A stretch of 64,000 nt of DNA. Source: an uncultured Bacteroidota bacterium (GTDB lineage: Bacteria; Bacteroidota; Bacteroidia; Chitinophagales; Chitinophagaceae). Of this stretch, positions 30,352-61,194 are shown in pieces. The stretch covers positions 9,586 to 73,585 of the forward strand of contig CAIMDZ010000051.1 of the NCBI GenBank assembly GCA_903839875.1, read 5' to 3'. Numbering within the stretch: position 1 is the stretch's first letter; the number at the start of each line of letters is the position of its first letter. The notes under the pieces were generated by a model. It saw only the letters and a program-made list of their open reading frames with translations. It did no database searches and was not told the DNA's origin. The position numbers and the translations under genes were made by a program.

Positions 30352-30453
30352 TACTCAATATAAATTAGTCTGACCTCATTTACCTATAAAGCCCGGCCCA
30401 AAAGGGAGGGGCTATTAGCAACCCTTATTTTTTTGGACTAATTTTTAGGTATT
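30352..30453. other. Conserved structured non-coding element, copy 1 (candidate cis-regulatory RNA/DNA element)
   Basis: Two blocks 34/37 and 34/34 identical to 49271-49386, flanking a variable hairpin. Closing stem AAATTAGTC/GACTAATTT. Confidence 0.7.
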
Positions 30454-44924: not shown

Positions 44925-46151
44925 ATGAATGACCGTTTTGAGATACCCGGACGCTTAAGAAACACAAGCCTCTTCCTGATAGCGATCGGCGTGATAACGC
45001 TGATCGCAGGAGTAGTTTGTTTGCTGATGGGCCACGATGATATTGAACGTGCACGCTTCTGGCTGGTGCTGTTGCATGACAGCATATTTTTTACACTGAT
45101 AACTACCGTCAGCATATTTATTATGGCTGCCAGCACACTTGCACATGGTGCATGGATCGTGGCCTACAGGCGTGTTACGGAAGCTATTGGCGCTAATGTG
45201 TGGTTGTTTGCTACTATTGCAGGCGCCGTATTGTTGCTGATCGTGTTTACTTTCAGGGATGCTCATGGCGTCAATACTATTTATCAATGGGTGACAGAGG
45301 CTGAACCGGGAAAAGATAAAATACTTTTGGGCAAGAAGGCATTCCTTAATAAAGGTATGTTCGTAGGATTTACACTTATTACTTTTGGCCTTTGGTCTTA
45401 TTTTGGCCGTTATTTCAGGGCTATGTCTATAGCACAGGAAAGCGCTCCTAAGAATGATACCAGGCTTTATTGGAAGGTGTTCCGTATGGCCGGCCTTTTT
45501 CTGCTGGTATACGCACTGTCACAAATGAGCACAGGCCCATGGTTATGGATCATGAGTATACAGGCACACTGGTATTCTACCTTGTTTAGCTGGTACACTT
45601 TTGCCAGCTCTTTTGTAAGTGGCATGTCGCTGATATTGCTGTGGGTAGTGTACCTGAAGAACCAGGGTAACCTGGAACTGGTAACCAAAGAACACATGCA
45701 TGACCTCGGTAAGTTCATGTTTGCCTTCAGTATTTTCTGGACCTATCTCTGGTTCTCGCAATACATGCTGCAATGGTATGCCAACATACCGGATGAAACT
45801 GTGTTCATTAAGCTTCGCCAGCAAGGCCCTTACAGTGTAATATTCTATGCCAACTTTATTATCAATTTTTGCATGCCGATTCTGATAATAATGTCTCGCC
45901 CAAGCAAGCGTAATTATTTCACGCTTACTTTTATGGCCATGTTTATCATTTTCGGTCACTGGCTTGATTTCTACCAGATGATCATGCCACGTCCTCTGGG
46001 AGAACATTGGCATATCAACTGGTATGAAATAGGCATCTTCATGGGTTTTGCCGGTATACTTATTTTTAGTGTATCACGCACACTTACAAAATCATCATTG
46101 GTGCCAAATAATAACCTGTTGCTTAAAGAAACAATTGTGCATATTAGCTAG
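44925..46151 (+). CDS. actF: ACIII subunit ActF
   Basis: About 10 TM segments, WIMSIQAHWYSTLFSWY, HDLGKFMFAFSIFWTYLWFSQY-x-L-x-WYANIP. Confidence 0.93.
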   Translation: MNDRFEIPGRLRNTSLFLIAIGVITLIAGVVCLLMGHDDIERARFWLVLLHDSIFFTLITTVSIFIMAASTLAHGAWIVAYRRVTEAIGANVWLFATIAGAVLLLIVFTFRDAHGVNTIYQWVTEAEPGKDKILLGKKAFLNKGMFVGFTLITFGLWSYFGRYFRAMSIAQESAPKNDTRLYWKVFRMAGLFLLVYALSQMSTGPWLWIMSIQAHWYSTLFSWYTFASSFVSGMSLILLWVVYLKNQGNLELVTKEHMHDLGKFMFAFSIFWTYLWFSQYMLQWYANIPDETVFIKLRQQGPYSVIFYANFIINFCMPILIIMSRPSKRNYFTLTFMAMFIIFGHWLDFYQMIMPRPLGEHWHINWYEIGIFMGFAGILIFSVSRTLTKSSLVPNNNLLLKETIVHIS

Positions 46152-49201: not shown

Positions 49202-49229
49202 AAGCCGCTCCAGTTCTGGGGCGGTTTTT
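49202..49229 (+). terminator. Intrinsic terminator ending the ACIII-oxidase operon
   Basis: AAGCCGCTCC-AGTTCT-GGGGCGGTTTTT. Confidence 0.75.
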
Positions 49230-49270: not shown

Positions 49271-49398
49271 TACTTAATATAAAATAGTCTGACATCATTT
49301 ACCTATACCCCCCGTCCTCCTGATAGAAGATCAGTACGTTGTTACGGGAGGTGCTATTAGCAACCCTTATTTTTTTGGACTAATTTAACTTAGGTATT
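49271..49398. other. Conserved structured non-coding element, copy 2
   Basis: Same flanking blocks as 30352-30453, with a longer inner hairpin ACCCCCCGT...ACGGGAGGT. Confidence 0.7.
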
Positions 49399-49533: not shown

Positions 49534-51102
49534 ATGAGTTTGCTAATAAGGATTGCGACAATCGGAATTCTGCCAGGTGATGAAGCGTTGATATCGTTTC
49601 AGAAAAAATTCCTTGTTTACCAGGGAACCGCCATGAGTATGGGCGGCATTCTTTGGGGCACGCTGCTTGTGGGTGCAGGTGTAGCTCCCCCATCCGTGAT
49701 CCCTTATGGATACGTTTTACTGACGGCGCTTAATTTCTGGTTTTTTTACAAGACGAAGCGGTTTGCAATAGTGCGTCATGTGCAGACTTTTATCAGCCTG
49801 CTGCTGCCGTTTACACTGCAGTGGTGGCTGGGAGGTTTTGAGCAATCGGGTGCAGTGATGCTATGGTCTATACTCGCGCTGGCATCATCGGCTACATACC
49901 TTGATGCCAGATCCAGTATTTTCTGGCTGGCTGCATTTATCCTGTTCACTTTAATTTCGTTTTATTCCGACTATTATTTCAGGGCGGTCTGCAGTAATAA
50001 CTGGCCAGCGAATGTCACGCGCATTTTCCTGCTATTGAATATTCTGTGCAACGGGACTGTGATATTTATGCTCTTTCTATACTATGTGGAAGCACAAAAA
50101 AGTATTACTACGGAGCTGATGAAAACATACGCAAAGTTGCTAAGTTCAGAAAAGATGGCAGCGCTTGGGCAGGTGTCTGCCGGTGTTGCGCACGAGGTAA
50201 ATACACCCCTCGGTGCCATTAAGTCTTCAGCAGAGGAGTCGTCTATTGCCTTTCATGAGATCATTACCAGGCTTCCGGTTATTCTTGACGCAATGAACAA
50301 AGAGGAGAAAGATTGTTTCATTGAATTTATTACGACAACAGTGCCCAATACCGAAGCGCTCACTACTGTTGAAGAAAGGGAGATAAAGAAAAGTTTAAAA
50401 ACAGAACTCGATGGAATGGGTGTAGAAAATGCCCGGTTTATTGCAGACCGGCTGGTACAGGTAGGTATCTATCAGATGACCCCATCATTAAGGCGACTGG
50501 CAGCAGTAAAAGGATTTGAAGACATTGTGATGGTTACCTATAATCTGTTGAATCAGCAAAAGAATAATAAGACCATTATGTTGGCAGTTGATAAGGCATC
50601 AAGGGTGGTAAAAGCATTAAAAACATATCTTCATACTACAAACAGTGAGAAGCCTGAATTAATGAATCTTCGTGAAAATATTGAGACGGTACTCACCATA
50701 TACCATAACAGGCTGAAGCAGGGTATAACTGTGATCAAACAATATGAGGACGTCCCCAATGTAAATATTTTTCCTGACCAGATGAACCAGGTCTGGACAA
50801 ACCTGATCGTTAACGCTGTACAGGCAATGGATAATAAGGGAATACTTACGGTTGGTATCAAAAGGGACGACAATTATGTTGTGGTAAGTATCAGGGACAC
50901 AGGAAAAGGAATACCCAAAGAGATCCAGGCTAAAATATTCGAGCCGTTTTTTACCACCAAGGTATCGGGTGAGGGCAGTGGTCTCGGTTTGGATATTATC
51001 AAGAAGATACTGGATTCGCACAAAGGACAAATTTCCTTTGTTTCAGAGGAAGGTGCCGGCACCACGTTTTATGTAAAGATTCCCTTAAATAACGAGCAAT
51101 GA
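49534..51102 (+). CDS. Membrane sensor histidine kinase 1 (multi-TM cyclase-type sensor + extended DHp + HATPase_c)
   Basis: H-box GVAHEVNTPLGAI, N-box QVWTNLIVNAVQAM, DTGKGIP, IFEPFFTTK, GSGLGLDII. About 6 TM segments at the N-terminus. Confidence 0.93.
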   Translation: MSLLIRIATIGILPGDEALISFQKKFLVYQGTAMSMGGILWGTLLVGAGVAPPSVIPYGYVLLTALNFWFFYKTKRFAIVRHVQTFISLLLPFTLQWWLGGFEQSGAVMLWSILALASSATYLDARSSIFWLAAFILFTLISFYSDYYFRAVCSNNWPANVTRIFLLLNILCNGTVIFMLFLYYVEAQKSITTELMKTYAKLLSSEKMAALGQVSAGVAHEVNTPLGAIKSSAEESSIAFHEIITRLPVILDAMNKEEKDCFIEFITTTVPNTEALTTVEEREIKKSLKTELDGMGVENARFIADRLVQVGIYQMTPSLRRLAAVKGFEDIVMVTYNLLNQQKNNKTIMLAVDKASRVVKALKTYLHTTNSEKPELMNLRENIETVLTIYHNRLKQGITVIKQYEDVPNVNIFPDQMNQVWTNLIVNAVQAMDNKGILTVGIKRDDNYVVVSIRDTGKGIPKEIQAKIFEPFFTTKVSGEGSGLGLDIIKKILDSHKGQISFVSEEGAGTTFYVKIPLNNEQ

Positions 51103-51488
51103 AGAGGATAATGAACATCGTATGTGTAGATGACGAGAAGATAGTTCTTGATAGTCTCAATTCACAACTCACGCGAAATTTTGGTAATAGCTTTAATTAC
51201 GAGTTTGCGGAATCTGCGGAGGAGGCTTTGGAGATTATTGAGGAACTGAAAAATGAAGATGATGAGGTTATTTATGTTGTAATCTCAGATTGGCTGATGC
51301 CCGGAATGAAAGGCGATGAATTGCTGGAGCGTGTTAGGTCTAAAGTGAAAAACGTAAAAACCATCCTGCTCACAGGCCATGTGGATAGTGTTGTAATAAG
51401 GGCAATAGAGCAAAAAAATGACGGTGGTATCAGATGCATTTACAAACCATGGAACGAAAAGGAACTGATAAGCCTGATAAATGAATAA
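51099..51488 (+). CDS. Single-domain response regulator (receiver only) 1
   Basis: VCVDDE, VISDWLMPG (phospho-Asp), LLTG, YKPW. ATGA overlap with the kinase. Confidence 0.93.
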   Translation: MKRIMNIVCVDDEKIVLDSLNSQLTRNFGNSFNYEFAESAEEALEIIEELKNEDDEVIYVVISDWLMPGMKGDELLERVRSKVKNVKTILLTGHVDSVVIRAIEQKNDGGIRCIYKPWNEKELISLINE

Positions 51489-51977
51489 TGGATGGGAAAT
51501 GGTTTAGTTCTTTGATGCATGATATGAAGCACGATGCCAGCAACACAGGACACTTGCCGGTGTTTTTGTTTACAGCTAACCAATTATCGGGGTTGTGTAT
51601 CAGTTGATGTAAGTTATTTGTGTTATAATTCCAGGCATACCAGAAAAAGTGATTTAATGAACTTAAAAACAAATAATACAAGCTTATGGAATTACAATAT
51701 TTCCACCTTAGTGGCTATTTTTGTTGAGTTGATAGTCATCGAGGAACTCTGGATTTGATACAAGGAAAAGGAAAGCCAGATATATAAGGAATTAAGGAGC
51801 CAGCTATGATTCCAAAGAATAAGCGAAACCAACAAAGGAACCTATATTGAACGAGCAGAAAAGCTTTAATATTCTTATAAAAATTGAAAAGTAACCGTCC
51901 GTCAGCCGTCAAAGATTTTTTTCCGGACCAGCGATAAATGAATGATTGATTACTAATACTATACATTGATGTAAAAT

Positions 51978-53576
51978 ATGAGTTTACTAAAGCGTATTGC
52001 AACAATAGGAAGTGTTTCAGGCGATGATGAAAGTGTAGCCATGCGAAAACAATTCATGATCTACCAGGGTATGGGTATGAGCATGGGTGGGGTATTATGG
52101 GGCAGTTTGCTCGTTTTTTTCTCATACCCTTATCCGGCCATTATTCCTTACGGATATGTGGTACTGACAGCTATCAATTTATATATATTTGACCGGCTGA
52201 AAAATTTTGTAGTTGCGCGGAATTTTCAAACAATCATCAGTATGTTTCTGCCATTCATGCTGCAGTGGTACCTTGGCGGATTTGCGGTTTCAGGGGGTGT
52301 TATGCTCTGGTCCATCATGGCAATGGTGCTGTCGGTATCTTATCAGAATATAAAGGCTAGCATTTTCTGGCTGGTTATTTATCTGGGGCTTACTGCATTT
52401 TCTTTTTGGTTCGACTCCTATTTCGCCAATGAATTCAATATGGGCGTTTCGGCCAATGTTTCTAAAATATTCCAGATATCCAATATAACAGCAGTATCCA
52501 TAATCCTCCTGCTGTTCTTTATATATTTCGTGAAAGTAAATGATAACAACATTATAATAGTAAAACAGACTTATGGAAAACTAATCAATACAGAAGAGAC
52601 TTTTGGTAGACGAATCAATTCGGAGAAATTAGCCGCCTTAGGGCAGATATCGGCGGGTGTGGCGCATGAGGTAAATACTCCGCTAGGAGCGATCAAATCT
52701 TCTGCAGAGGAGTCAACTATTGCATTTCATGAGATTATCACCAAGCTGCCATTTATTCTCGATGCTATGAGTAAAGAGGAAAAGGACTGCTTTATCGAAT
52801 TTATCACCACAATTGTGCCAACCAAAGAGTCGCTCACTACCTCAGAAGAACGGGAAAGGAAGAAAAATTTAAAAACAGAACTCGATGGAATGGGTGTAGA
52901 AAATACCAGATTTATTTCAGACAGGCTGGTACAAGTGGGTATCTACCAGATCACCCCGAATTTAAGAAAGCTGGCGGCAACCAAAGGATTTGAGGACATT
53001 GTGATGGTTACTTATAACCTGCTGAATCAGCAAAAGAATAATAAGACTATTATAATGGCAGTTGATAAGGCGTCGAGGGTGGTAAAAGCCTTGAAAACGT
53101 ATCTGCACACTGCAAACAATGAGAAACCCGAATCAACTAGCATTCGTGAAAATATAGAAACTGTACTTACCATTTACCACAACCGGCTGAAACAGGGAAT
53201 TACCGTTATCAAGCAATATGAAGACGTCCCCAATGTGGAAATTTTTCCTGACCAGATGAACCAGGTATGGACAAACCTGATCGTTAACGCCGTGCAGGCG
53301 ATGGACAATAAGGGGACACTAACAATCGGGATCAAAAGGAATAACAATTATGTCGTGGTAAGTATCCAGGACACCGGAATAGGCATACCAAAGGACATAC
53401 AATCGAAAATATTTGAACCTTTTTTTACCACTAAGGTATCAGGTGAAGGCAGCGGCCTGGGCCTGGATATTATTAAGAAAATACTGGACACACATAAAGG
53501 ACAAATATCTTTCGAGTCGGAGGAAGGTATTGGTACTATTTTTTATGTAAAAATTCCGATAATTGCTGAAAAATGA
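51978..53576 (+). CDS. Membrane sensor histidine kinase 2 (paralog of kinase 1)
   Basis: Same H/N/G1/F/G2 boxes, with long identical stretches to kinase 1 in the transmitter. Confidence 0.93.
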   Translation: MSLLKRIATIGSVSGDDESVAMRKQFMIYQGMGMSMGGVLWGSLLVFFSYPYPAIIPYGYVVLTAINLYIFDRLKNFVVARNFQTIISMFLPFMLQWYLGGFAVSGGVMLWSIMAMVLSVSYQNIKASIFWLVIYLGLTAFSFWFDSYFANEFNMGVSANVSKIFQISNITAVSIILLLFFIYFVKVNDNNIIIVKQTYGKLINTEETFGRRINSEKLAALGQISAGVAHEVNTPLGAIKSSAEESTIAFHEIITKLPFILDAMSKEEKDCFIEFITTIVPTKESLTTSEERERKKNLKTELDGMGVENTRFISDRLVQVGIYQITPNLRKLAATKGFEDIVMVTYNLLNQQKNNKTIIMAVDKASRVVKALKTYLHTANNEKPESTSIRENIETVLTIYHNRLKQGITVIKQYEDVPNVEIFPDQMNQVWTNLIVNAVQAMDNKGTLTIGIKRNNNYVVVSIQDTGIGIPKDIQSKIFEPFFTTKVSGEGSGLGLDIIKKILDTHKGQISFESEEGIGTIFYVKIPIIAEK

Positions 53577-53962
53577 AAAAGATTTTGAACATCGTTTGTG
53601 TTGATGACGAGAAGATAGTGCTTGACAGTCTTAATTCCCAACTGACAAGGAATTTTGGCAATAGTTTTAATTACGAGTTTGCAGAATCTGCTGAAGAGGC
53701 GTTGGAGATAATCAATGAACTAAGAAATGAAGATGAAGAAGTTATTTACGTTGTTATTTCAGACTGGCTGATGCCGGGGATGAAAGGTGATGAATTGCTG
53801 GAGCAGGTTCGTGCAAAAGTGAAGAACGTCAAAACCATACTGCTTACCGGCCATGTAGACAGTGCCGTGATAAAAGCCATTGAGCAAAAGAAAGATGGTG
53901 GAATACATTGTATTTACAAGCCCTGGAATGAGCAGGAGTTGATAGCTTTGATAAACGATTAA
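53573..53962 (+). CDS. Single-domain response regulator 2 (paralog of regulator 1)
   Basis: Near-identical to 51099-51488. ATGA overlap. Confidence 0.93.
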   Translation: MKKILNIVCVDDEKIVLDSLNSQLTRNFGNSFNYEFAESAEEALEIINELRNEDEEVIYVVISDWLMPGMKGDELLEQVRAKVKNVKTILLTGHVDSAVIKAIEQKKDGGIHCIYKPWNEQELIALIND

Positions 53963-55102
53963 TTGATGGACAACGGTATTATTATTTGCATAGATGATGA
54001 GCGGGTTGTATTGAACGGGCTTCAATCACAATTAGGCCGTGATTTTGGGAACAACTACGCCATCGAAATAGCGGAGAGCGGAGAGGAAGCGGTTGCCCTG
54101 GTAAAAGAAATACTGGAAGCAGGAAACGATATTCCGGTTGTGATCTCTGACCAGCTCATGCCGGGAATGAAAGGGCATGAACTGTTGAAATTGATTCACA
54201 AATTGACGCCAAAAACCTACTCAATACTACTCACAGGTCAGTCTGATCTGGAAGCAGTGATAGAAGCTGTGAACCAGGCAAACCTATATCGGTACATGTC
54301 TAAGCCCTGGGAAAGCCAGGACCTTATACTTACAGTAAAGGAAGCGATAAAAGGATTCTACCAGGACAGGCAACTGGAACATCAGAATATTTTGCTGGAA
54401 AGGCACAACAAAGAACTGGAGCAACTGGTGGAAGAGCGGACAAGTGAACTGCAGAAAGAAAAGCAGAAAAGCGACGAGCTTTTGCGAAACATTCTGCCGG
54501 AAAAGGTAGCTATCGAACTGATTACTCATGGTGTTGCTACGCCCAGGCACTATGACAGCGTGTCGGTACTTTTTACCGACTTCCAGGGATTCACAAAATT
54601 AGCATCCGAGATAACGCCGCAGGAGCTGGTGCATACATTGAATGAATGCTACTCTGCATTCGATGATATTATTGGCAGGCACAAACTGGAAAAAATAAAG
54701 ACAATAGGCGATGCATATATGTGTGCTGGTGGCCTTCCCACCGAGAATACAACCAATGCAACTGACGCTGTTGCTGCGGCACGTGAAATACAAGAGTGGA
54801 TCGCAAAATGGAACATGGAACGGGAAGGCAAAGGGATGAAAAAATGGGACCTCCGGATTGGCATCCATACTGGCAAACTGATAGCGGGCGTTATCGGCAA
54901 AAAGAAATTTGCGTATGATGTCTGGGGCGATGCTGTGAATATAGCCTCAAGGATGGAATCGGGTGGCGAAATAAACAAGGTCAATATTTCGAATGCAACT
55001 TATGAACTGGTAAAGGATCAGTTCAATTGTACGTTTCGTGGCAGAATTGAGGTAAAAGGCAAGGGAGAGATTGAAATGTATTTTGTGGAAGGAAGTAAAT
55101 AA
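53963..55102 (+). CDS. Receiver domain - class III adenylate cyclase fusion 1
   Basis: REC (CIDDE, ISDQLMPG, SKPW), coiled coil, LLRNILP, FTDFQGFT, EKIKTIGDAYM, AYDVWGDAVNIASRME. ATG at 53966. Confidence 0.93.
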   Translation: MMDNGIIICIDDERVVLNGLQSQLGRDFGNNYAIEIAESGEEAVALVKEILEAGNDIPVVISDQLMPGMKGHELLKLIHKLTPKTYSILLTGQSDLEAVIEAVNQANLYRYMSKPWESQDLILTVKEAIKGFYQDRQLEHQNILLERHNKELEQLVEERTSELQKEKQKSDELLRNILPEKVAIELITHGVATPRHYDSVSVLFTDFQGFTKLASEITPQELVHTLNECYSAFDDIIGRHKLEKIKTIGDAYMCAGGLPTENTTNATDAVAAAREIQEWIAKWNMEREGKGMKKWDLRIGIHTGKLIAGVIGKKKFAYDVWGDAVNIASRMESGGEINKVNISNATYELVKDQFNCTFRGRIEVKGKGEIEMYFVEGSK

Positions 55103-55175
55103 TGGAACCGTTTGTATTGATATTTTAACTTTAGCGGATTTACAATTATTAATGAGTCAACAGACAGTTTAGCCA

Positions 55176-58094
55176 ATGAGGTGGCTGGTATTTTTTATTG
55201 CTTTTATTTACGGGGCGCAGGCTGATGCACAATCTTTAGCGCCTCAACCGAATCCTCATGACGAAAAATACTTTTTTCTACAAATGCATTTTGGCAGTTC
55301 CCGGCTGGAAAGTATACGGGATACCCTTGAAAGAATTCGGCAAAGTGCCGAGACGAAAGGTGATGCCGAATTTGCTTTAAGTATCAAATTATTTTTGTTT
55401 GTAAAAGAGGATCACGAGCATGTTGTAAAAAACGACACCACAGAGTATCGCCTGTTAGAGCTGGCATCGGAGGCGAACACTAAAAAATTATCACGTCTCG
55501 AAGCGGATGTCCGGCAGGCACTTGGTGATTTTTACTACGGCAGTTACAGACAGCAACTCAGCGCAGCCATTGAACAGTATACTGCAGCCTACTCAATTTA
55601 TAAAACTTTTAGTCCTTCTGAATACCCTGACCTGCAGAAGAACTTGTACTCAATAGGCCTTGTGCTTTACAAGTACCAGGAATATGGGCAATCGATTGAG
55701 TACCTGCGCAAAGCGATCAATGTACCGCAGGCGGACAAGTACAAGTACTTTTTCCCAATAGCGAATGCAATCGGGCTGTCTTACAGGAGTTTGAAGCAGT
55801 ATGACAGCGCTATTCACTATTTCCAGGTTATTTGCGATACAGCTACACAGCGGAACGATGAAGGATGGATCGGTATTTCGAAAGGCAACATAGGTATAAC
55901 TTTTTTTCTCCAGAAAAAATATACGGAGGCTGAACCTTTACTCGAAAAGGACATTGAATTGAGCATTGCGAATTCAAGTATAAAAAATGCTGTTAGTTCT
56001 ATGGCCGTCCTGGCAAAAATATACCATGAGCAGCACAAGGATGATGAAGCACAGCAACTATTGTCAGAAGCATTAAGGAAGTGTTATGCAAAGTCATTTT
56101 TTGGTGATTATTCCCTTGCTGAACAATTGTATGAACAACTACATAAAGTATATGAAATTAAGGGACAGTACCGGCTGGCTGCATTATATGCCGATTCTGC
56201 CCTTATTGCAAAAGACTCAGCCACAAGCAGGTATAATGCTCTGGCACTATCCAGGTCTTACGAACGTCAGAATTTTATTAAGAGGAAGCTCGCCGAAGAG
56301 AAAGTTCAAAACCAGGCCGCGCTGGATCGGGCAGAACATGCAAAAACCGAATTGCATCAGCAACAATTGTTTTATAAATTCGCAATAGCATTCCTTGTTG
56401 TGGTATTACTGGTCGCCGGCGTCATTAACCGGTTTCGTGCCAACCTCAGACGGATATTTACCAACCTTAGCGATGCGCCTGATATCGTGGTACAAAAAAT
56501 GTCGGTGGTTATCATTTCGATTGCTACCTGTGCTGCCGCTGCTGTTTGGGCAGTTTTATACTATTCGTACTATGGGCCCCGCCCGGTAACCTTTGGCCCA
56601 ATAATATACCTGGTTGTCGTTGGCTCGTTGCTGTTCAATTATTTCCTGACTAAAAAGCAGCAATTGCTCATCAATCTTCAACTGGTTAGCATTTTTATTA
56701 TGCCGGTTGCGGTGGAACTGGCTGGTGGAGGTTTCCAGTCGGGTATTGTTATAGTCTGGTCATTCCTTGCACCAGTGGGTGCCCTGTTATATAAGGGAAT
56801 AAGACATGCTGCTTTCTGGATGATTTTGTTTGTGATTGCTGTTCTGTGCACGGTTATTTTTAAAAACAGTTTTTCATCATTCTATTTCCCAATTTCCGAA
56901 GCGGCAATGGCTATGTTTAACAGCATGAATATAGTAGGCACTGCAGTCATCATCTATTTCAGCATGCAGTATTTTGTGAAATCGATAATCCGCAATGAGC
57001 GCCTGCTGCAGGAAAAAAATCTTGTGTTGTCTGACACTATGGATGAACTGAACCTCGAAAAGCAAAAAGCTGAAAAAGCCTATTTTGTGCTTAAAGAAAC
57101 ACACGTAAAACTCGTGCAATCAGAGAAGATGGCCGCACTTGGACAATTGGCAGCGGGAATTGCGCATGAGGTAAATACGCCACTCGGGGCTATTCGTTCA
57201 TCTTCGGAGGTGGCAGCTCACTCGTTTAATGATATTATGGCTGATTTTGTGTGGTTTGCAAATACACTGGGTGAAAAAGACAAAGAACTTTTTGTACAGT
57301 TGGTAGCTGCTGCAAATCCAAATGATGAAACCTTATCGACAAAAGAGGAACGGGAATTGAAGAAAAAAATGCGGGCTCGGTTTTCTGAACTGGGAATAGT
57401 AAATACACACTTTATATCCGACAGGCTGGTGCAGGTGGGTATTTTTGAAGTTACTCCGGAATTGGAACAACTTGCGAACCACGAGCATTTTGGCAAAATG
57501 GTTCATTTCATTATCAATATCCTTAGCCAGAAGCGCAGTAACAAAACGATACAAATTGCAGTAGACAAAGCTTCGAGGATAGTCGGTGCGCTGAAAACAT
57601 ATGTTCACGCGACAAACGATGGATTAATGGAGCGGATAAGCGTGCGTGATAATATAGAAACAGTACTTACGATTTATCAAAACCGACTGAAGCAAGGTAT
57701 TAAAGTAATTAAAAACTATGAAGAAGTACCGGAAATTTCCGGTTACGCTGATCAGCTAAATCAGGTATGGACAAATCTGATAGTTAACGCAGTTCACGCG
57801 ATGGACGGAAAAGGAATTTTAACGATTGGTATAAACCAGAAAGGCGAAAGTGTTGTGGTAAGTATAAAAGACACAGGGATGGGCATTCCTGCATCTATAC
57901 GAGAAAAAATATTTGAACCATTCTTTACAACAAAAAGTACAGGAGAGGGAAGCGGGTTGGGACTTGATATCATCAGTCGGATACTGAAGGAACACTCGGC
58001 ACAAATTACTTTTGAAACTGCTGAAGGGGAAGGGACAACATTTTTTGTAGAACTGCCGATCACCTCACAAGATCAAAAAAATGAAGTAACATAA
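55176..58094 (+). CDS. TPR-domain + multi-TM sensor histidine kinase 3
   Basis: Signal peptide, TPR-like helices, a TM, then a TM bundle homologous to kinases 1/2 (GGFQSG-x-x-x-x-WS-x-LA), H-box GIAHEVNTPLGAI, HATPase boxes. Confidence 0.9.
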   Translation: MRWLVFFIAFIYGAQADAQSLAPQPNPHDEKYFFLQMHFGSSRLESIRDTLERIRQSAETKGDAEFALSIKLFLFVKEDHEHVVKNDTTEYRLLELASEANTKKLSRLEADVRQALGDFYYGSYRQQLSAAIEQYTAAYSIYKTFSPSEYPDLQKNLYSIGLVLYKYQEYGQSIEYLRKAINVPQADKYKYFFPIANAIGLSYRSLKQYDSAIHYFQVICDTATQRNDEGWIGISKGNIGITFFLQKKYTEAEPLLEKDIELSIANSSIKNAVSSMAVLAKIYHEQHKDDEAQQLLSEALRKCYAKSFFGDYSLAEQLYEQLHKVYEIKGQYRLAALYADSALIAKDSATSRYNALALSRSYERQNFIKRKLAEEKVQNQAALDRAEHAKTELHQQQLFYKFAIAFLVVVLLVAGVINRFRANLRRIFTNLSDAPDIVVQKMSVVIISIATCAAAAVWAVLYYSYYGPRPVTFGPIIYLVVVGSLLFNYFLTKKQQLLINLQLVSIFIMPVAVELAGGGFQSGIVIVWSFLAPVGALLYKGIRHAAFWMILFVIAVLCTVIFKNSFSSFYFPISEAAMAMFNSMNIVGTAVIIYFSMQYFVKSIIRNERLLQEKNLVLSDTMDELNLEKQKAEKAYFVLKETHVKLVQSEKMAALGQLAAGIAHEVNTPLGAIRSSSEVAAHSFNDIMADFVWFANTLGEKDKELFVQLVAAANPNDETLSTKEERELKKKMRARFSELGIVNTHFISDRLVQVGIFEVTPELEQLANHEHFGKMVHFIINILSQKRSNKTIQIAVDKASRIVGALKTYVHATNDGLMERISVRDNIETVLTIYQNRLKQGIKVIKNYEEVPEISGYADQLNQVWTNLIVNAVHAMDGKGILTIGINQKGESVVVSIKDTGMGIPASIREKIFEPFFTTKSTGEGSGLGLDIISRILKEHSAQITFETAEGEGTTFFVELPITSQDQKNEVT

Positions 58095-58099
58095 CTTTG
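58092..58099 (+). promoter_or_regulatory. Promoter -7 box upstream of cyclase 2
   Basis: TAACTTTG overlapping the kinase-3 stop codon, about 90 bp before ATG 58190. Confidence 0.45.
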
Positions 58100-58189
58100 C
58101 TGCCTACTGAATTTCGTATTGAAGAAGGGAATGTTGAGTGAACAGCAAAACGTATAAAAATATCGAAAAAATAATGTAATTATGTTGGC

Positions 58190-59317
58190 ATGAAAAACGG
58201 AGTTATTCTTTGCGTAGATGATGAGCGGGTTGTACTTACAGGGCTACAGGCACAGTTAGATCGTGACTTTGGCTCGAGCTATGTAATTGAATTGGCAGAG
58301 AGCGGAGAGGAAGCGCTTGAGCTGGTTGACGAATTACTGGAATCAGGCAATGACCTGCTGATGGTCATATCAGATCAAATGATGCCGGGCATCAAGGGCC
58401 ATGAAGTGCTCAGGCGTATCCATCTGGCTTCCCCCGGCACTTATACTGTTCTTCTTACCGGCCAGTCTGACCTCGAAGCGGTGATTGATGCTGTGAACGA
58501 AGCCAATCTCTACAGGTATATTTCTAAGCCGTGGCAAAGCCAGGATCTTGTACTTACCGTAAAAGAAGCCATAAAGGGATTTTACCAGGAGCGGCAACTG
58601 GCACAACAAAACCTGCTGCTGGAACGGCATAATAAAGAGTTGGAACAAACGGTGTCAGAACGAACGAAGGAGCTCAAGGAACAAATGACGAAGAGCGCAC
58701 AGCTGTTACTCAATATTCTGCCGGAAAAGGTAGCCGCGGAACTGAAAGACCGGGGCGAGGCGACCGCTAAACATTATGACAATGTGTCTGTACTCTTTAC
58801 GGACTTCCAGGGATTTACAAAGCTTGCATCCGAGATAACCCCGCAGGAACTGGTGCAAACCCTCAACGAGTGTTATACTGCATTTGATGATATAGCGGAC
58901 GCTCACAATCTTGAGAAAATCAAGACTATTGGCGACGCCTACATGTGTGCGGGTGGATTGCCCCTGGAAAATACATCAAACGCATTGGATGCCGTAGCCG
59001 CTGCCTGTGAAATACAACAATGGGTGGCCAATTGGAATGCTAAACGGGTAGCGGGCGGAATGATTAGCTGGGACCTGCGCATCGGGATACACACCGGTAA
59101 GCTGATTGCGGGGGTGATAGGCAAAACGAAGTTTGCGTACGACGTTTGGGGAGATGCTGTGAATATAGCATCGAGGATGGAGTCAAACGGAGCGCCAGGC
59201 AAAGTGAATATTTCTAAGGACACCTATGAGCTTGTGATGGAACAATTCAAGTGCACGTATCGCGGTAAGATAGAAGTGAAAGGCAAAGGGGAGATTGAGA
59301 TGTATTTTGTTGGATAG
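58190..59317 (+). CDS. Receiver domain - class III adenylate cyclase fusion 2
   Basis: Same architecture and catalytic motifs as 53963-55102. Confidence 0.93.
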   Translation: MKNGVILCVDDERVVLTGLQAQLDRDFGSSYVIELAESGEEALELVDELLESGNDLLMVISDQMMPGIKGHEVLRRIHLASPGTYTVLLTGQSDLEAVIDAVNEANLYRYISKPWQSQDLVLTVKEAIKGFYQERQLAQQNLLLERHNKELEQTVSERTKELKEQMTKSAQLLLNILPEKVAAELKDRGEATAKHYDNVSVLFTDFQGFTKLASEITPQELVQTLNECYTAFDDIADAHNLEKIKTIGDAYMCAGGLPLENTSNALDAVAAACEIQQWVANWNAKRVAGGMISWDLRIGIHTGKLIAGVIGKTKFAYDVWGDAVNIASRMESNGAPGKVNISKDTYELVMEQFKCTYRGKIEVKGKGEIEMYFVG

Positions 59318-59778
59318 GCACGACTGTGAGCATGGTGAATAGTCAAAATACGGAGTTATATCAGAGTAAAAGTTTAATTATATTTAATTATATAATGCAT
59401 TCGTGTCCTCGGCTGCTCTTACATTGCCTTGTATGTAATGGATACCTACCGATACTTGTCCTGCTGTGACTGATCAAGGCACTGATGCCGAAGTCATATC
59501 CCGCTTTCTTTATTCGCTCAGGTAATCCGGTCACCCGAAGCACTTCTGCATTTTTCATACTTCATAATATACAAATAAATGATCATAAACAGCTTGCCAC
59601 CAAAGAAACTTTTTATAATAGCCCAAAAACTGCACTATCATGGATTTTATATTTTGTAATTTAAAATGTCTTGTTTACATTAATATAGATTGTCGTTATC
59701 AAATATGATACATATTTGTAGAAACAGGCTATTACTACTTTCGAGATAATCCGGTTTTATTTAGTTGGATGTCGATCC

Positions 59779-59809
59779 GATTTGTCAACTTTTAAAAAGT
59801 TGACAAATC
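59779..59809. repeat. Perfect palindrome, same family as 35506-35536
   Basis: GATTTGTCAACTTTT-A-AAAAGTTGACAAATC. Confidence 0.8.
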
Positions 59810-59823
59810 TTGCCCGGCATTAC

Positions 59824-60075
59824 CTACTCCTCCATATCAATCTCAAACCCCTCGAAAAAATCTTTAGGCTGTATATGCAGCGCACGAGCTATTGAAAAGA
59901 AAAGATTTATTGTGAGTGCCTGGGTGCCTGCTTCTATTTGTTGTATTGTCCGTCTCCCTATACCTGCCTCGAATGCAAGCGCAGCCTGCGTGAGCCCTGC
60001 ATCTTTGCGCATATGCTTCAACAGCTTGCCAAACCTTTCTACTTCTTTTTGGTTTGTTTTCACCCGCCAACACAA
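59824..60075 (-). CDS. XRE-family HTH transcriptional regulator (paralog B)
   Basis: FGKLLKHMRKDAGLTQAALAFEAGIGRRTIQQIEAG. Start may be GTG 60063. Confidence 0.88.
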   Translation of the reverse strand: MCWRVKTNQKEVERFGKLLKHMRKDAGLTQAALAFEAGIGRRTIQQIEAGTQALTINLFFSIARALHIQPKDFFEGFEIDMEE

Positions 60076-60095
60076 TTGACATTATTAAATATACT

Positions 60096-60335
60096 CTACT
60101 CCTCCATTTCAATCTGAAACCCTTTAAAAAAAACTCCAGGCTGCACTTCCAGGGCGCGTAAAATAGAAAAGAAAAGGTCCATTGATACATTCATGTCACC
60201 GGCTTCTATTCGCTGAATAGTCCTGGTACTTATACCGGCTCCAAATGCAAGCGCTGCCTGTGTTAGCCCGGCTTCAATGCGGAGTTGTTTTAACCGCTCG
60301 TTAAATTTCCCTATTTCATCTGGATTTTTCACCAT
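60096..60335 (-). CDS. XRE-family HTH transcriptional regulator (paralog A)
   Basis: RLKQLRIEAGLTQAALAFGAGISTRTIQRIEAG. Confidence 0.88.
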   Translation of the reverse strand: MVKNPDEIGKFNERLKQLRIEAGLTQAALAFGAGISTRTIQRIEAGDMNVSMDLFFSILRALEVQPGVFFKGFQIEMEE

Positions 60336-60361
60336 TCAAAACTGGCAATATTTTAAAAAAT

Positions 60362-60385
60362 AAACACGACATAAATGTCATGTTT
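60362..60385. promoter_or_regulatory. Putative XRE operator palindrome
   Basis: AAACA-C-GACAT-AA-ATGTC-A-TGTTT in the divergent intergenic gap. Confidence 0.55.
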
Positions 60386-60426
60386 TGAAAAATATTTCTT
60401 TTCTTTGCACCTACATCCCCAACATC

Positions 60427-60657
60427 ATGAAAAACAAATCCACTCTCCCGAAGGAACTACAAAAAGAAACGGAGCGTTTTTTTGAGTCTGCGCAGCCGGT
60501 GCGGCTGAGCCGTAATCTGCGCACGCTGCTGCTCAATTATTTTGCTGTGCAACAGGATGGACATGGCTTTAAAGTGGAAGACCTGTTTTATGATCTTATC
60601 TGGTTGTTTGAATGGCTGGATGTGGCGGCGGACGAATTGCCGGCGGGCGGAAAGTGA
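60427..60657 (+). CDS. Small hypothetical helical protein divergent from the XRE pair
   Basis: 76 aa from ATG 60427 (track 60385): RLSRNLR-x-LLL-x-Y...DL-x-WLFEWLD. Confidence 0.65.
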   Translation: MKNKSTLPKELQKETERFFESAQPVRLSRNLRTLLLNYFAVQQDGHGFKVEDLFYDLIWLFEWLDVAADELPAGGK

Positions 60658-60701
60658 AGCTATTTCACAAATCTAAAAACTGTAATTTCCAACACCACAT
60701 T

Positions 60702-60804
60702 CAACCCGCTTTGGGGTTGGCGGCCACTATTCCTGTTCCGCCGGTTGCACCGGCGGCTATTCACATTCAAGTCCTCCGGACTTTCTTAAGTTAATGACAT
60801 TGCC
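60702..60804 (+). repeat. Three-hairpin REP/MITE-like element, copy 3 (diverged)
   Basis: CAACCC..GGGTTG, CCGCCGG-TTGCA-CCGGCGG-CTATTCAC, AGTCCTCCGGACT, CTTAAGTTAATGACATTGCC. Confidence 0.75.
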
Positions 60805-60812
60805 AGGCTATC

Positions 60813-61187
60813 CTAAATAACGACATTGCTCATACTGACCACATGCTTTGGACTGAGAACTAATTGTTCCTTTGCAATAATTAGATCCATATCCTGTCTC
60901 GGTATATTTCCCAACACGACTTCATCACCAAATACCAAGGCACCTGTAAAACAACTTCTGTTTTGGAAAGATACTTTTAGCGGGCCTGCATATGGCACCT
61001 TTATCGCTGAACCATTTGAGCTTATTACTTTGCGCTCCTCTACCTGTTTTAACTGAAGTCGCCTCGCTAAATTTTCCGGTATGCACAGATTCATGACGCT
61101 GGAATCAACTAATGCAGCTGCCCTGTACGCCTGCATTTCAGGCATCAATGCATTTGAAAGTTCTATTTCGCCACGGACAATCATCAA
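60813..61187 (-). CDS. Clan AA (retropepsin-like) aspartic protease homolog
   Basis: ALVDSS-x-x-x-LCIPE-x-LA...VPYAGP-x-x-V-x-F-x-NR-x-CFTGALV-x-GDEV-x-LG-x-IP-x-x-DMDL. Confidence 0.78.
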   Translation of the reverse strand: MMIVRGEIELSNALMPEMQAYRAAALVDSSVMNLCIPENLARRLQLKQVEERKVISSNGSAIKVPYAGPLKVSFQNRSCFTGALVFGDEVVLGNIPRQDMDLIIAKEQLVLSPKHVVSMSNVVI

Positions 61188-61194
61188 CCCGAAT

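Follow-up and report, generated by a model that had tools for sequence, protein, structure and literature searches.

Why would a bacterium keep stand-alone receivers beside a second-messenger cyclase, and how would such a set of proteins be wired? This question is raised by seven signalling genes at positions 49534-59317 of a 64,000-nucleotide stretch of DNA (hereafter the window) from an uncultured member of the Chitinophagaceae, phylum Bacteroidota (GenBank assembly GCA_903839875.1, contig CAIMDZ010000051.1). To our knowledge, cyclic AMP (cAMP) signalling in the Bacteroidota is almost unstudied, and most knowledge of cyclase-output response regulators comes from genome censuses and from CyaC, a fused protein of cyanobacteria. 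The seven open reading frames (ORFs) of this island are intact, lie on the + strand, and encode sensor kinases (HK), stand-alone receivers (REC) and receivers fused to class III adenylate cyclases (RC) in the order HK1-REC1, HK2-REC2-RC1, HK3, RC2. Judged by its sequence and by its relatives in other genomes, the island appears to be a modular cassette of a kinase, a receiver that lacks the usual switch residue and a receiver-cyclase, amplified to three inputs and two cAMP outputs. Its genes and their parts are the following.

49534-51102, + strand: HK1, six-transmembrane (6TM) sensor histidine kinase of 522 amino acids (aa), assigned by Pfam, motifs, an AlphaFold2 (AF2) model and a hidden Markov model (HMM) of the membrane domain; 6TM at aa 1-~200, His220 at 50191-50193, catalytic and ATP-binding (CA) domain at aa 415-519
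50293-50514, + strand: insert of HK1 (aa ~254-327) at the hairpin of the dimerisation and histidine phosphotransfer (DHp) domain
51099-51488, + strand: REC1, stand-alone receiver of 129 aa with a 4-nt overlap with HK1; Asp64, Thr92, Lys116, and Cys113 at the aromatic switch position
51489-51977, no strand: gap of 489 bp between the HK1-REC1 and HK2-REC2-RC1 units
51978-53576, + strand: HK2, 6TM sensor histidine kinase of 532 aa with His230, which opens the canonical triad
53573-53962, + strand: REC2, stand-alone receiver of 129 aa, Asp64; 4-nt overlap with HK2, abuts RC1
53963-55102, + strand: RC1, response regulator-adenylate cyclase of 379 aa, assigned by Pfam, motifs and the receiver alignment; receiver at aa 7-125 (Asp63, switch Tyr111), coiled coil and cyclase transducer element at aa ~131-190 (LLRNILPEKVA), class III cyclase at aa 195-377
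55176-58094, + strand: HK3, chimeric sensor kinase of 972 aa, assigned by Pfam, motifs and the membrane-domain HMM; signal peptide at aa 1-19, periplasmic TPR region at aa ~20-395, extra membrane helix at aa 399-417, 6TM at aa ~420-614, His664 at 57165-57167, DHp insert at aa ~699-769, CA domain at aa 858-963
about 57072, + strand: swap junction of HK3, near aa 633
58190-59317, + strand: RC2, response regulator-adenylate cyclase of 375 aa, paralogue of RC1; Asp62

Pfam matched HATPase_c and a partial HisKA in the three kinases, with TPR repeats added in HK3, Response_reg and nothing else in REC1 and REC2, and Response_reg, an HNOBA-like coiled coil and Guanylate_cyc (E about 8e-59; 7.9e-59 for RC1) in both RC proteins; it found no DNA-binding domain in any of the seven. 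The ORFs, Pfam and a check of the motifs therefore bear out a first-pass annotation of this DNA, which had described seven co-oriented genes in this order, with intact motifs and no DNA-binding output. Identity between paralogues is 69% for HK1/HK2, 89% for REC1/REC2 and 76% for RC1/RC2, and HK3 shares 43% with HK1 and HK2. The ratios of non-synonymous to synonymous substitution (dN/dS) are 0.12, 0.018 and 0.05 for the three pairs in that order, with dS saturated (> 1.7). By these values the duplications are old, and purifying selection acts on each copy.

The annotation had also taken the layout for an integrator of several inputs. Our neighbourhood survey showed that it is no one-off arrangement but the expansion of a conserved three-gene block: a kinase core with a ~75-residue DHp insert, a 129-aa stand-alone receiver and a REC-cyclase. 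Nine more loci or contigs carry this cassette (the P0007 contig, L081, L083, G207, G313, G353, L127, L003 and L001), and since the same gene order is found again at each of them, the layout is not due to chance. In three other assemblies, the gene for a close HK1 homolog precedes one for a 129-aa receiver, and a gene for a ~375-aa REC-cyclase comes third. Among 401 sampled Bacteroidota genomes, full-length RC1 matches were found, besides the genome of the island itself, only in G207, G313 and G353, where a kinase with the same type of core and a stand-alone receiver come before the REC-cyclase; L127 has an HK3 orthologue heading a complete triad. The triad is also carried by a Microcoleus cyanobacterium (L003) and by an uncultured metagenome-assembled genome (MAG; L001), and the cassette is conserved across at least two phyla. 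Across the cassettes the transmitter side is constant and the sensor side variable: 6TM in HK1, HK2, L081 and L083, TPR plus 6TM in HK3 and L127, TPR alone in G207, Reg_prop/Y_Y_Y in G313 and G353, and dCache-HAMP-PAS in Microcoleus. The divergence of kinase core, stand-alone receiver and cyclase receiver runs in step. Read against these loci, the island consists of three copies of the cassette, HK1-REC1 without a cyclase gene, HK2-REC2-RC1 in the canonical form and HK3-RC2 without a stand-alone receiver. The literature search, which many subscription papers were beyond, found no description of the cassette or of a Bacteroidota equivalent, in agreement with the earlier statement that no characterised Bacteroidota system with this layout was known.

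A degraded cyclase gene in the gap 3' of REC1 and a receiver gene lost from between HK3 and RC2 were both considered, and no trace of either was found. The 489-bp gap holds no remnant of the island genes (tblastn E > 0.2) and has no repeat copies elsewhere in the genome; it is presumably a promoter region.

The Microcoleus triad came from a contig scan seeded on generic kinase motifs, which returned mostly distant kinases. Some of these, with a similarly extended catalytic core (L004-L025), adjoin genes for REC-FAD (pyridine-nucleotide-disulphide) oxidoreductases, an unusual output; examples are L005:9280-10959, L006:11033-12715, L011:7754-9553 and L019:7848-9569, and such loci occur in Actinomycetota, in Chloroflexota and in MAGs of Cytophagales and Chitinophagales. 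In a Leptospiraceae MAG (L039:1-2247), a kinase, a 133-aa stand-alone receiver with Cys at the switch position and a REC-PP2C (SpoIIE) output follow one another in the same order; the contig covers no more of the kinase than its last 153 aa, and the DHp is not visible.

What marks the kinase of this cassette? All three island kinases carry the H-box AHEVNTPL, at His220 in HK1, His230 in HK2 and His664 in HK3, which includes the phospho-acceptor His and the H-E/D-x-x-T/N phosphatase motif. Their GHKL ATPase domain is clear (HATPase_c E 2e-23 to 3e-27), with D-x-G-x-G, FxPFF (FEPFFTTK) and G-x-G-x-GL (GEGSGL), and the N box NLIVNA was read directly off the translations. The HisKA match reached 18-26 bits against a cut-off of 26.9 and aligned helix 1 only (model positions 2-25/28), because a ~75-residue insert lies at the DHp hairpin. 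HK1-HK3 do not have the compact two-helix hairpin; they carry a variant DHp and are still kinases. In the AF2 model of HK1 (pLDDT 79) there are six membrane helices, the last of which (TM6) runs unbroken from aa 159 to 253 through His220, followed by four short helices (aa 256-323) at the hairpin and then by helix 2 (aa 328-370). Foldseek of this model against the PDB returned ordinary DHp-CA cores only, leaving the membrane domain and the insert unmatched, and found no solved kinase structure with such an insert. The insert was detectable in all triad kinases examined, and it occurs together with the stand-alone receiver in every one of these triads. Within its own genome the island is the only place with the 6TM domain, the DHp insert or receivers of this subfamily, which makes the four receivers the obvious partners of the three kinases.

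What, then, do the stand-alone receivers do? The acidic pair, Asp, Thr and Lys are present in all four island receivers. Stand-alone and cyclase-attached receivers share 42-46% identity and similar alpha-1 helices. In a maximum-likelihood tree, nine stand-alone receivers, the cyanobacterial one included, form one clade (support 97/93) separate from the cyclase-attached receivers. We then compared the aromatic switch position, three residues N-terminal of the conserved Lys and equivalent to CheY Tyr106, in an alignment of 22 receivers, half of them output-bearing and half stand-alone. It is Tyr in 11/11 output receivers (motif LYRYxxKPW); in the stand-alone receivers it is Cys in 8/11 and Val in 3/11, with Asp, Thr and Lys retained in both groups. 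A stand-alone receiver is therefore presumably phosphorylatable but without the usual coupling to the alpha4-beta5-alpha5 face. It is also the most conserved component of the cassette, with 74-82% identity across genera.

Since neither the island nor the conserved neighbourhoods encode a histidine phosphotransfer (Hpt) protein, the most economical reading is that the stand-alone receiver most likely competes as an acceptor and so serves as a sink or sets a threshold. The first-pass annotation had proposed sinks or cross-links, and the loss of the aromatic switch residue makes this plausible. One kinase with two response regulators can produce sink and threshold behaviour, and in the Sinorhizobium CheA-CheY1-CheY2 system a phosphate sink gives fast termination and a sigmoidal response (PMC4214558). 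As is proposed for the cassette, two receivers there compete for one kinase, and one of them mainly drains phosphoryl groups; unlike the cassette, whose putative sink is deduced from sequence only, that system serves chemotaxis, with a CheA kinase and a motor-binding output. In the cassette, the genes of the stand-alone and output receivers are adjacent and the receivers belong to one subfamily; both may be served by the same kinase, as in the sink and DivK-PleD motifs.

The position of the stand-alone receiver, always between kinase and REC-cyclase and translationally coupled to the kinase, would also suit a four-step phosphorelay, in which the phosphoryl group passes from the kinase to the stand-alone receiver, then to an Hpt or Spo0B-like protein encoded elsewhere and finally to the REC-cyclase, as in KinA-Spo0F-Spo0B-Spo0A. 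Its conservation would fit such a role, and some receiver-only intermediaries likewise lack the aromatic switch residue (preprint 10.1101/2022.06.03.494635). However, no Hpt was found in the seven genes or the conserved neighbourhoods (the rest of the genome was not searched for Hpt), the lone match in a neighbourhood being faint and inside an unrelated hybrid kinase on one contig, and the DHp insert has no conserved His. Moreover, HK3-RC2 and the two-gene loci L033 and L060 have no stand-alone receiver at all, and the identity and similar alpha-1 helices of the two receiver classes suit recognition of both by one kinase. We consider such a relay quite improbable.

Could the stand-alone receiver instead be a real or second output, CheY- or DivK-like, that binds the DHp insert of the kinase or an unrelated effector such as the gliding or type IX secretion system (T9SS) machinery? 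The unit would then have two outputs and no sink. A dN/dS of 0.018 and the identity kept across genera are more than a passive sink seems to need, and receiver and insert keep company in the triads. DivK is said, in work by Paul et al. from 2008, to stimulate its kinases allosterically. The DivJ/PleC-DivK-PleD system of Caulobacter and Agrobacterium resembles the island in combining several kinases, one stand-alone receiver and one receiver-fused nucleotide cyclase. Its two response-regulator genes are adjacent, as in the cassette; divK and pleD form one operon, and DivJ/PleC phosphorylate both products (PMC7003649). The differences are that PleD makes c-di-GMP through GGDEF and not cAMP through a class III cyclase, that DivK keeps a functional output face with known targets and is related to REC1/REC2 by the receiver fold only, and that the DivJ/PleC kinase genes, unlike those of HK1-HK3, do not lie beside the response-regulator genes. 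The loss of the aromatic switch argues against a classical alpha4-beta5-alpha5 change in the cassette receiver, and no candidate target gene is conserved beside the cassette. An output role of this kind is, in our view, unlikely.

The low dN/dS and the strict co-occurrence with the insert nevertheless leave room for DivK-like feedback on the kinase. The phosphorylated stand-alone receiver might dock on the four-helix DHp insert and flip the kinase between its kinase and phosphatase modes, a built-in feedback device that we put forward as a tentative and rather unlikely idea. If it were true, a graded membrane signal would be turned into a sharp cAMP pulse, and the cassette would be a portable signal-to-cAMP switch, plugged behind at least five sensor types, that had also served to turn one-component cyclases into two-component ones. 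A cassette with a diagnostic kinase insert and a switch-less receiver offers a tractable system in which to ask why a sink-like receiver is kept beside a second-messenger regulator.

The output side was examined residue by residue, using roles known from mammalian and mycobacterial class III cyclases, in which a Lys/Asp pair specifies ATP. RC1 has the metal-binding Asp206 and Asp250, the Lys246/Asp319 pair, and Asn326 and Arg330 of the transition state; the RC2 residues (D205, K245, D249, D318, N325 and R329) follow the RC1 numbering minus one. This set indicates that RC1 and RC2 are ATP-specific adenylate cyclases, as predicted from their sequences. Their receivers are complete as well, with D11/D12, D63, T91, Y111 and K114 in RC1 and the equivalents in RC2.

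Such completeness bears on another rival, by which the RC1/RC2 receivers would be dimerisation scaffolds only, the cyclases being constitutive or otherwise regulated and the kinases signalling elsewhere. The precedent is Dictyostelium ACR, whose cyclase activity needs neither histidine kinase activity nor receiver phosphorylation (PMC3009899). The ACR receivers have, however, lost the switch residues, whereas RC1/RC2 keep Asp, Thr, Tyr and Lys; the tight kinase/REC/REC-cyclase synteny spans phyla, and the genome offers the kinases no other receivers of this subfamily. We give this explanation next to no credence. That receiver phosphorylation can control a class III cyclase is already known from CyaC, and what is new here is the arrangement in a cassette. 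PMC3009899, citing Kasahara & Ohmori 1999 and Okamoto et al. 2004, describes how phosphorylation of the cyclase-proximal receiver activates cAMP synthesis by Spirulina CyaC, and how the Anabaena kinase AphC acts on CyaC and can feed its N-terminal receiver. By domain type, CyaC (REC-GAF-HK-REC-class III cyclase; Spirulina platensis and Anabaena) has the same parts as the cassette: one kinase, a pair of receivers and a class III cyclase. CyaC is a single polypeptide with GAF inputs, whereas the cassette consists of three separate genes, with a membrane sensor and a DHp insert in the kinase and a free 129-aa receiver without the aromatic switch. Our findings extend current understanding; none overturns it.

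Downstream of the cyclases, a genome search for proteins that bind cyclic nucleotide monophosphates (cNMP), which the first-pass annotation had suggested, found 10; of the seven scanned with Pfam, five have a Crp-type helix-turn-helix (HTH) and one is an ion channel (C217:24795-26117), predicted to be cNMP-gated. One of the five is a REC-cNMP-HTH hybrid (G000:C98:9442-10602, by Pfam) with a close paralogue by sequence at C11:13649-14734; as members of the CRP family, these two regulators could combine phosphorylation and cyclic nucleotide as inputs. A complete cAMP pathway in this genome is therefore plausible on its gene content.

The genome encodes six class III cyclase domains. Outside the island they include a signal peptide-TPR-1TM-cyclase (C89:3016-4110), a 1TM-cyclase (C190:47991-48773) and a divergent polytopic membrane cyclase (C72:26426-27541). 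A ~1,710-aa protein joins a Ser/Thr kinase, an AAA_16 ATPase, GAF and a class III cyclase (G000:C201:17697-22820 and L124:986-6133) and is conserved in several Bacteroidota genomes; the L124 copy was assigned by Pfam and the C201 copy by sequence and size. The idea that few members of the phylum (about 1%) have REC-cyclases had to be rejected, since REC-cyclases of ~430-457 aa, whose divergent receiver was missed by our phmmer probe, are common in one large family. REC-cyclases of another receiver type are thus common in Bacteroidota; the triad-type subfamily is rare (4/401 genomes).

Taken together, these observations make it probable, in our judgement, that the island is an expanded, branched two-component system with a cAMP output. 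Sensing would take place at the membrane end of each kinase, through the 6TM domain in HK1 and HK2 and, in HK3, through a TPR domain in the periplasm that sits on top of a related 6TM. If TM6 runs as one helix into the DHp, as modelled, the membrane signal could reach His220, His230 or His664 directly. The H-E-x-x-T motif of HisKA kinases is linked to phosphatase activity, and its presence suggests that HK1-HK3 may double as phosphatases. The phosphoryl group would then pass to two kinds of receiver of one subfamily, those of RC1/RC2 and REC1/REC2. Phosphorylation of the former would, via the coiled coil and the cyclase transducer element, set how active the homodimeric, ATP-specific class III cyclase is, while REC1/REC2 would compete for phosphoryl groups or feed back on the kinase. 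The cAMP would be read by the CRP-type regulators, the REC-cNMP-HTH hybrids and the predicted cNMP-gated channel of the genome. In this scheme three kinases would converge on two cyclases. The gene content, the intact motifs, the conserved synteny, the chimeric origin of HK3 and the separate receiver clades are shown by our data, and we infer which receivers each kinase serves, in which direction the cyclases are regulated, what the stand-alone receivers do and which signals come in.

Several points weigh against this scheme. HK3-RC2, L033 and L060 have no adjacent stand-alone receiver, and since these units work without one, its role is accessory. DHp helix 1 of HK3 differs from that of HK1/2 at several positions past the His, and cross-talk among the three units is for this reason not assured. 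In Dictyostelium ACR the receivers barely matter to cyclase activity (PMC3009899). Finally, the putative operon structure of the island is deduced from gene spacing alone; a sigma-70 promoter scan gave 26 sites against 27 expected from shuffled sequence, the model being ill-suited to Bacteroidota promoters. An Rfam scan of the window gave zero matches.

Where did the third unit come from? It had been proposed that sensors of the kind usually fused to cyclases were here separated from them by a phosphorelay, and for HK3 this is strongly supported. A search with residues 20-640 of HK3 gave 24 close full-length relatives of its sensor (51-59% identity, about 97% coverage), of which 21 are ~830-aa sensor-cyclase fusions and three are HK3-type kinases. 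The fusion P0204 (867 aa) aligns through residues 32-665 with HK3 1-633 (57% identity) and through residues 634-867 with RC2 135-375 (49%) and with RC1 (51%). Collinearity ends within the signalling helix, at ...ELNLEKQKAE in HK3 and ...ELKLEKQKSD in P0204; past this junction comes the cyclase transducer element in P0204 (DLLLNILPEEVAEEL, where RC2 has QLLLNILPEKVAAEL) and the DHp in HK3. The membrane domain of HK3 is 62% identical to those of the one-component cyclases and 24-26% to those of HK1/2, and its kinase core is 56% identical to those of HK1 and HK2. HK3 is a chimera of a one-component cyclase sensor and a cassette kinase core.

The alignments strongly support a derivation of HK3/RC2 from a one-component TPR-6TM-cyclase, in which a kinase core and a receiver would have been inserted at the signalling helix. 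The one-component cyclases (P0204-P0227, uncharacterised) resemble HK3 in a sensor 51-59% identical to its residues 1-633, and RC1/RC2 in a coiled coil, transducer element and cyclase 48-53% identical to residues ~135-376; unlike HK3/RC2, they have neither kinase core nor receiver, and the sensor drives the cyclase directly. On the P0007 contig, a gene for such a cyclase adjoins the triad. In HK3 a signal peptide is followed by the TPR region, one extra membrane helix and the 6TM domain, and the 6TM of HK1 starts and ends in the cytoplasm, an order and a topology that support a periplasmic TPR domain. The same TPR plus 6TM sensor occurring with a direct or with a kinase/receiver output would allow the gain, threshold and integration added by phosphotransfer to be tested, and the swap point, located to within a few residues in the signalling helix, could be a template for engineering chimeric sensors.

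Reg_prop beta-propeller/Y_Y_Y sensors are typical of Bacteroidota hybrid two-component systems. One is fused to a cyclase in L123:620-3865 (1,082 aa), a type common in one large family of the phylum, and another to a triad kinase in L115:4402-8322 (1,307 aa). The two appear to form a second one-component/two-component pair.

Is the 6TM domain itself a known module? An HMM built from 85 diverse homologs matched HK1 (E 4e-66), HK2 (5e-64) and HK3 (4e-17), so that the ~6-TM input domain seen in all three kinases by the first-pass annotation is real, and the motif residues listed there are invariant columns of the family. These columns are W42, P58, Y61, N68, Q85, P93, G101-G102-F103, S106-G107, W112 and N170. 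They cluster at the TM3-TM4 junction (LPFxxQWxLGGFxxSGxVMLW) and include the polar intramembrane residues N68, Q85 and N170, which suggests that a candidate site for binding or gating lies within the membrane. The domain is covered by neither a Pfam nor an NCBIfam model. An exhaustive search sized the family at 1,122 clusters at 50% identity, the domain being invariably N-terminal. Among the 85 diverse members the outputs are 55 histidine kinases, 11 PP2C phosphatases, four cyclases, two methyl-accepting chemotaxis proteins (MCPs) and one Ser/Thr kinase, with an Hpt domain additionally present in 7/85. A large sensor family without a Pfam model therefore feeds all these kinds of output. The claim that such sensors are usually fused to cyclases holds for the TPR plus 6TM type of HK3 (21/24 relatives) and fails for the 6TM of HK1 and HK2 (4/85).

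A likeness to MASE7 had been proposed for this domain and did not survive the search: PF20967 (gathering score 26.2 bits) had zero matches at E <= 10 in the whole genome or in the isolated membrane domains. MASE6 (PF20966) was matched by HK3 alone, at 12.6-13.5 bits (E 0.14-0.17) against a gathering score of 27.4, and is not among the families matched by at least two of the 85 members at E <= 1. Like MASE6 and MASE7, the 6TM domain is a polytopic N-terminal membrane module on varied signalling outputs; unlike them, it has its own invariant motif and intramembrane polar residues, and matches neither model significantly.

Upstream of the island lie the genes for alternative complex III (ACIII) and for cytochrome oxidase subunits II and I, and downstream one for an M1 peptidase with a T9SS sorting domain, which, taken with the source names of homologs, assigns the genome to the Bacteroidota. 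The upstream operon and the terminator after it, both noted earlier, were confirmed. Two features lie between this operon and HK1.

49202-49227, + strand: intrinsic-terminator-like hairpin closing the ACIII/cytochrome oxidase operon, an 11-pair stem, 6 of its pairs GC, with a T run after it
49271-49398, no strand: dispersed intergenic repeat upstream of HK1, outside the signalling system, with at least 25 copies genome-wide

The hairpin lies 59 nt past the coxI stop. A functional link between the island and the ACIII/oxidase operon, raised earlier as a speculation, was rejected as a conserved feature: the terminator intervenes, and no respiratory genes lie beside the cassette at the other loci with readable flanks. 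In the upstream operon, a 408-aa ORF between the genes for a cytochrome c subunit and coxII (44925-46151) has no Pfam match at E <= 1e-4 and may encode an ActF-like membrane subunit.

The repeat at 49271-49398 has a second copy in the window at 30352-30453, and at least 25 full or partial copies are spread over many contigs of the genome, which ruled it out as a regulatory element specific to the island. With its conserved ends and variable GC-rich central hairpin, it looks REP- or MITE-like.

The 1.9 kb past RC2 (59318-61194) hold no convincing gene and are repeat-rich. For each of two segments, one at about 59538-59681 and one at about 60681-60804, there are matches of 75-88% identity on dozens of contigs; several copies exist of a 31-nt palindrome (about 59779-59809), and a direct repeat of 203 nt occupies 59824-60026 and 60096-60298, its two copies being 70% identical.

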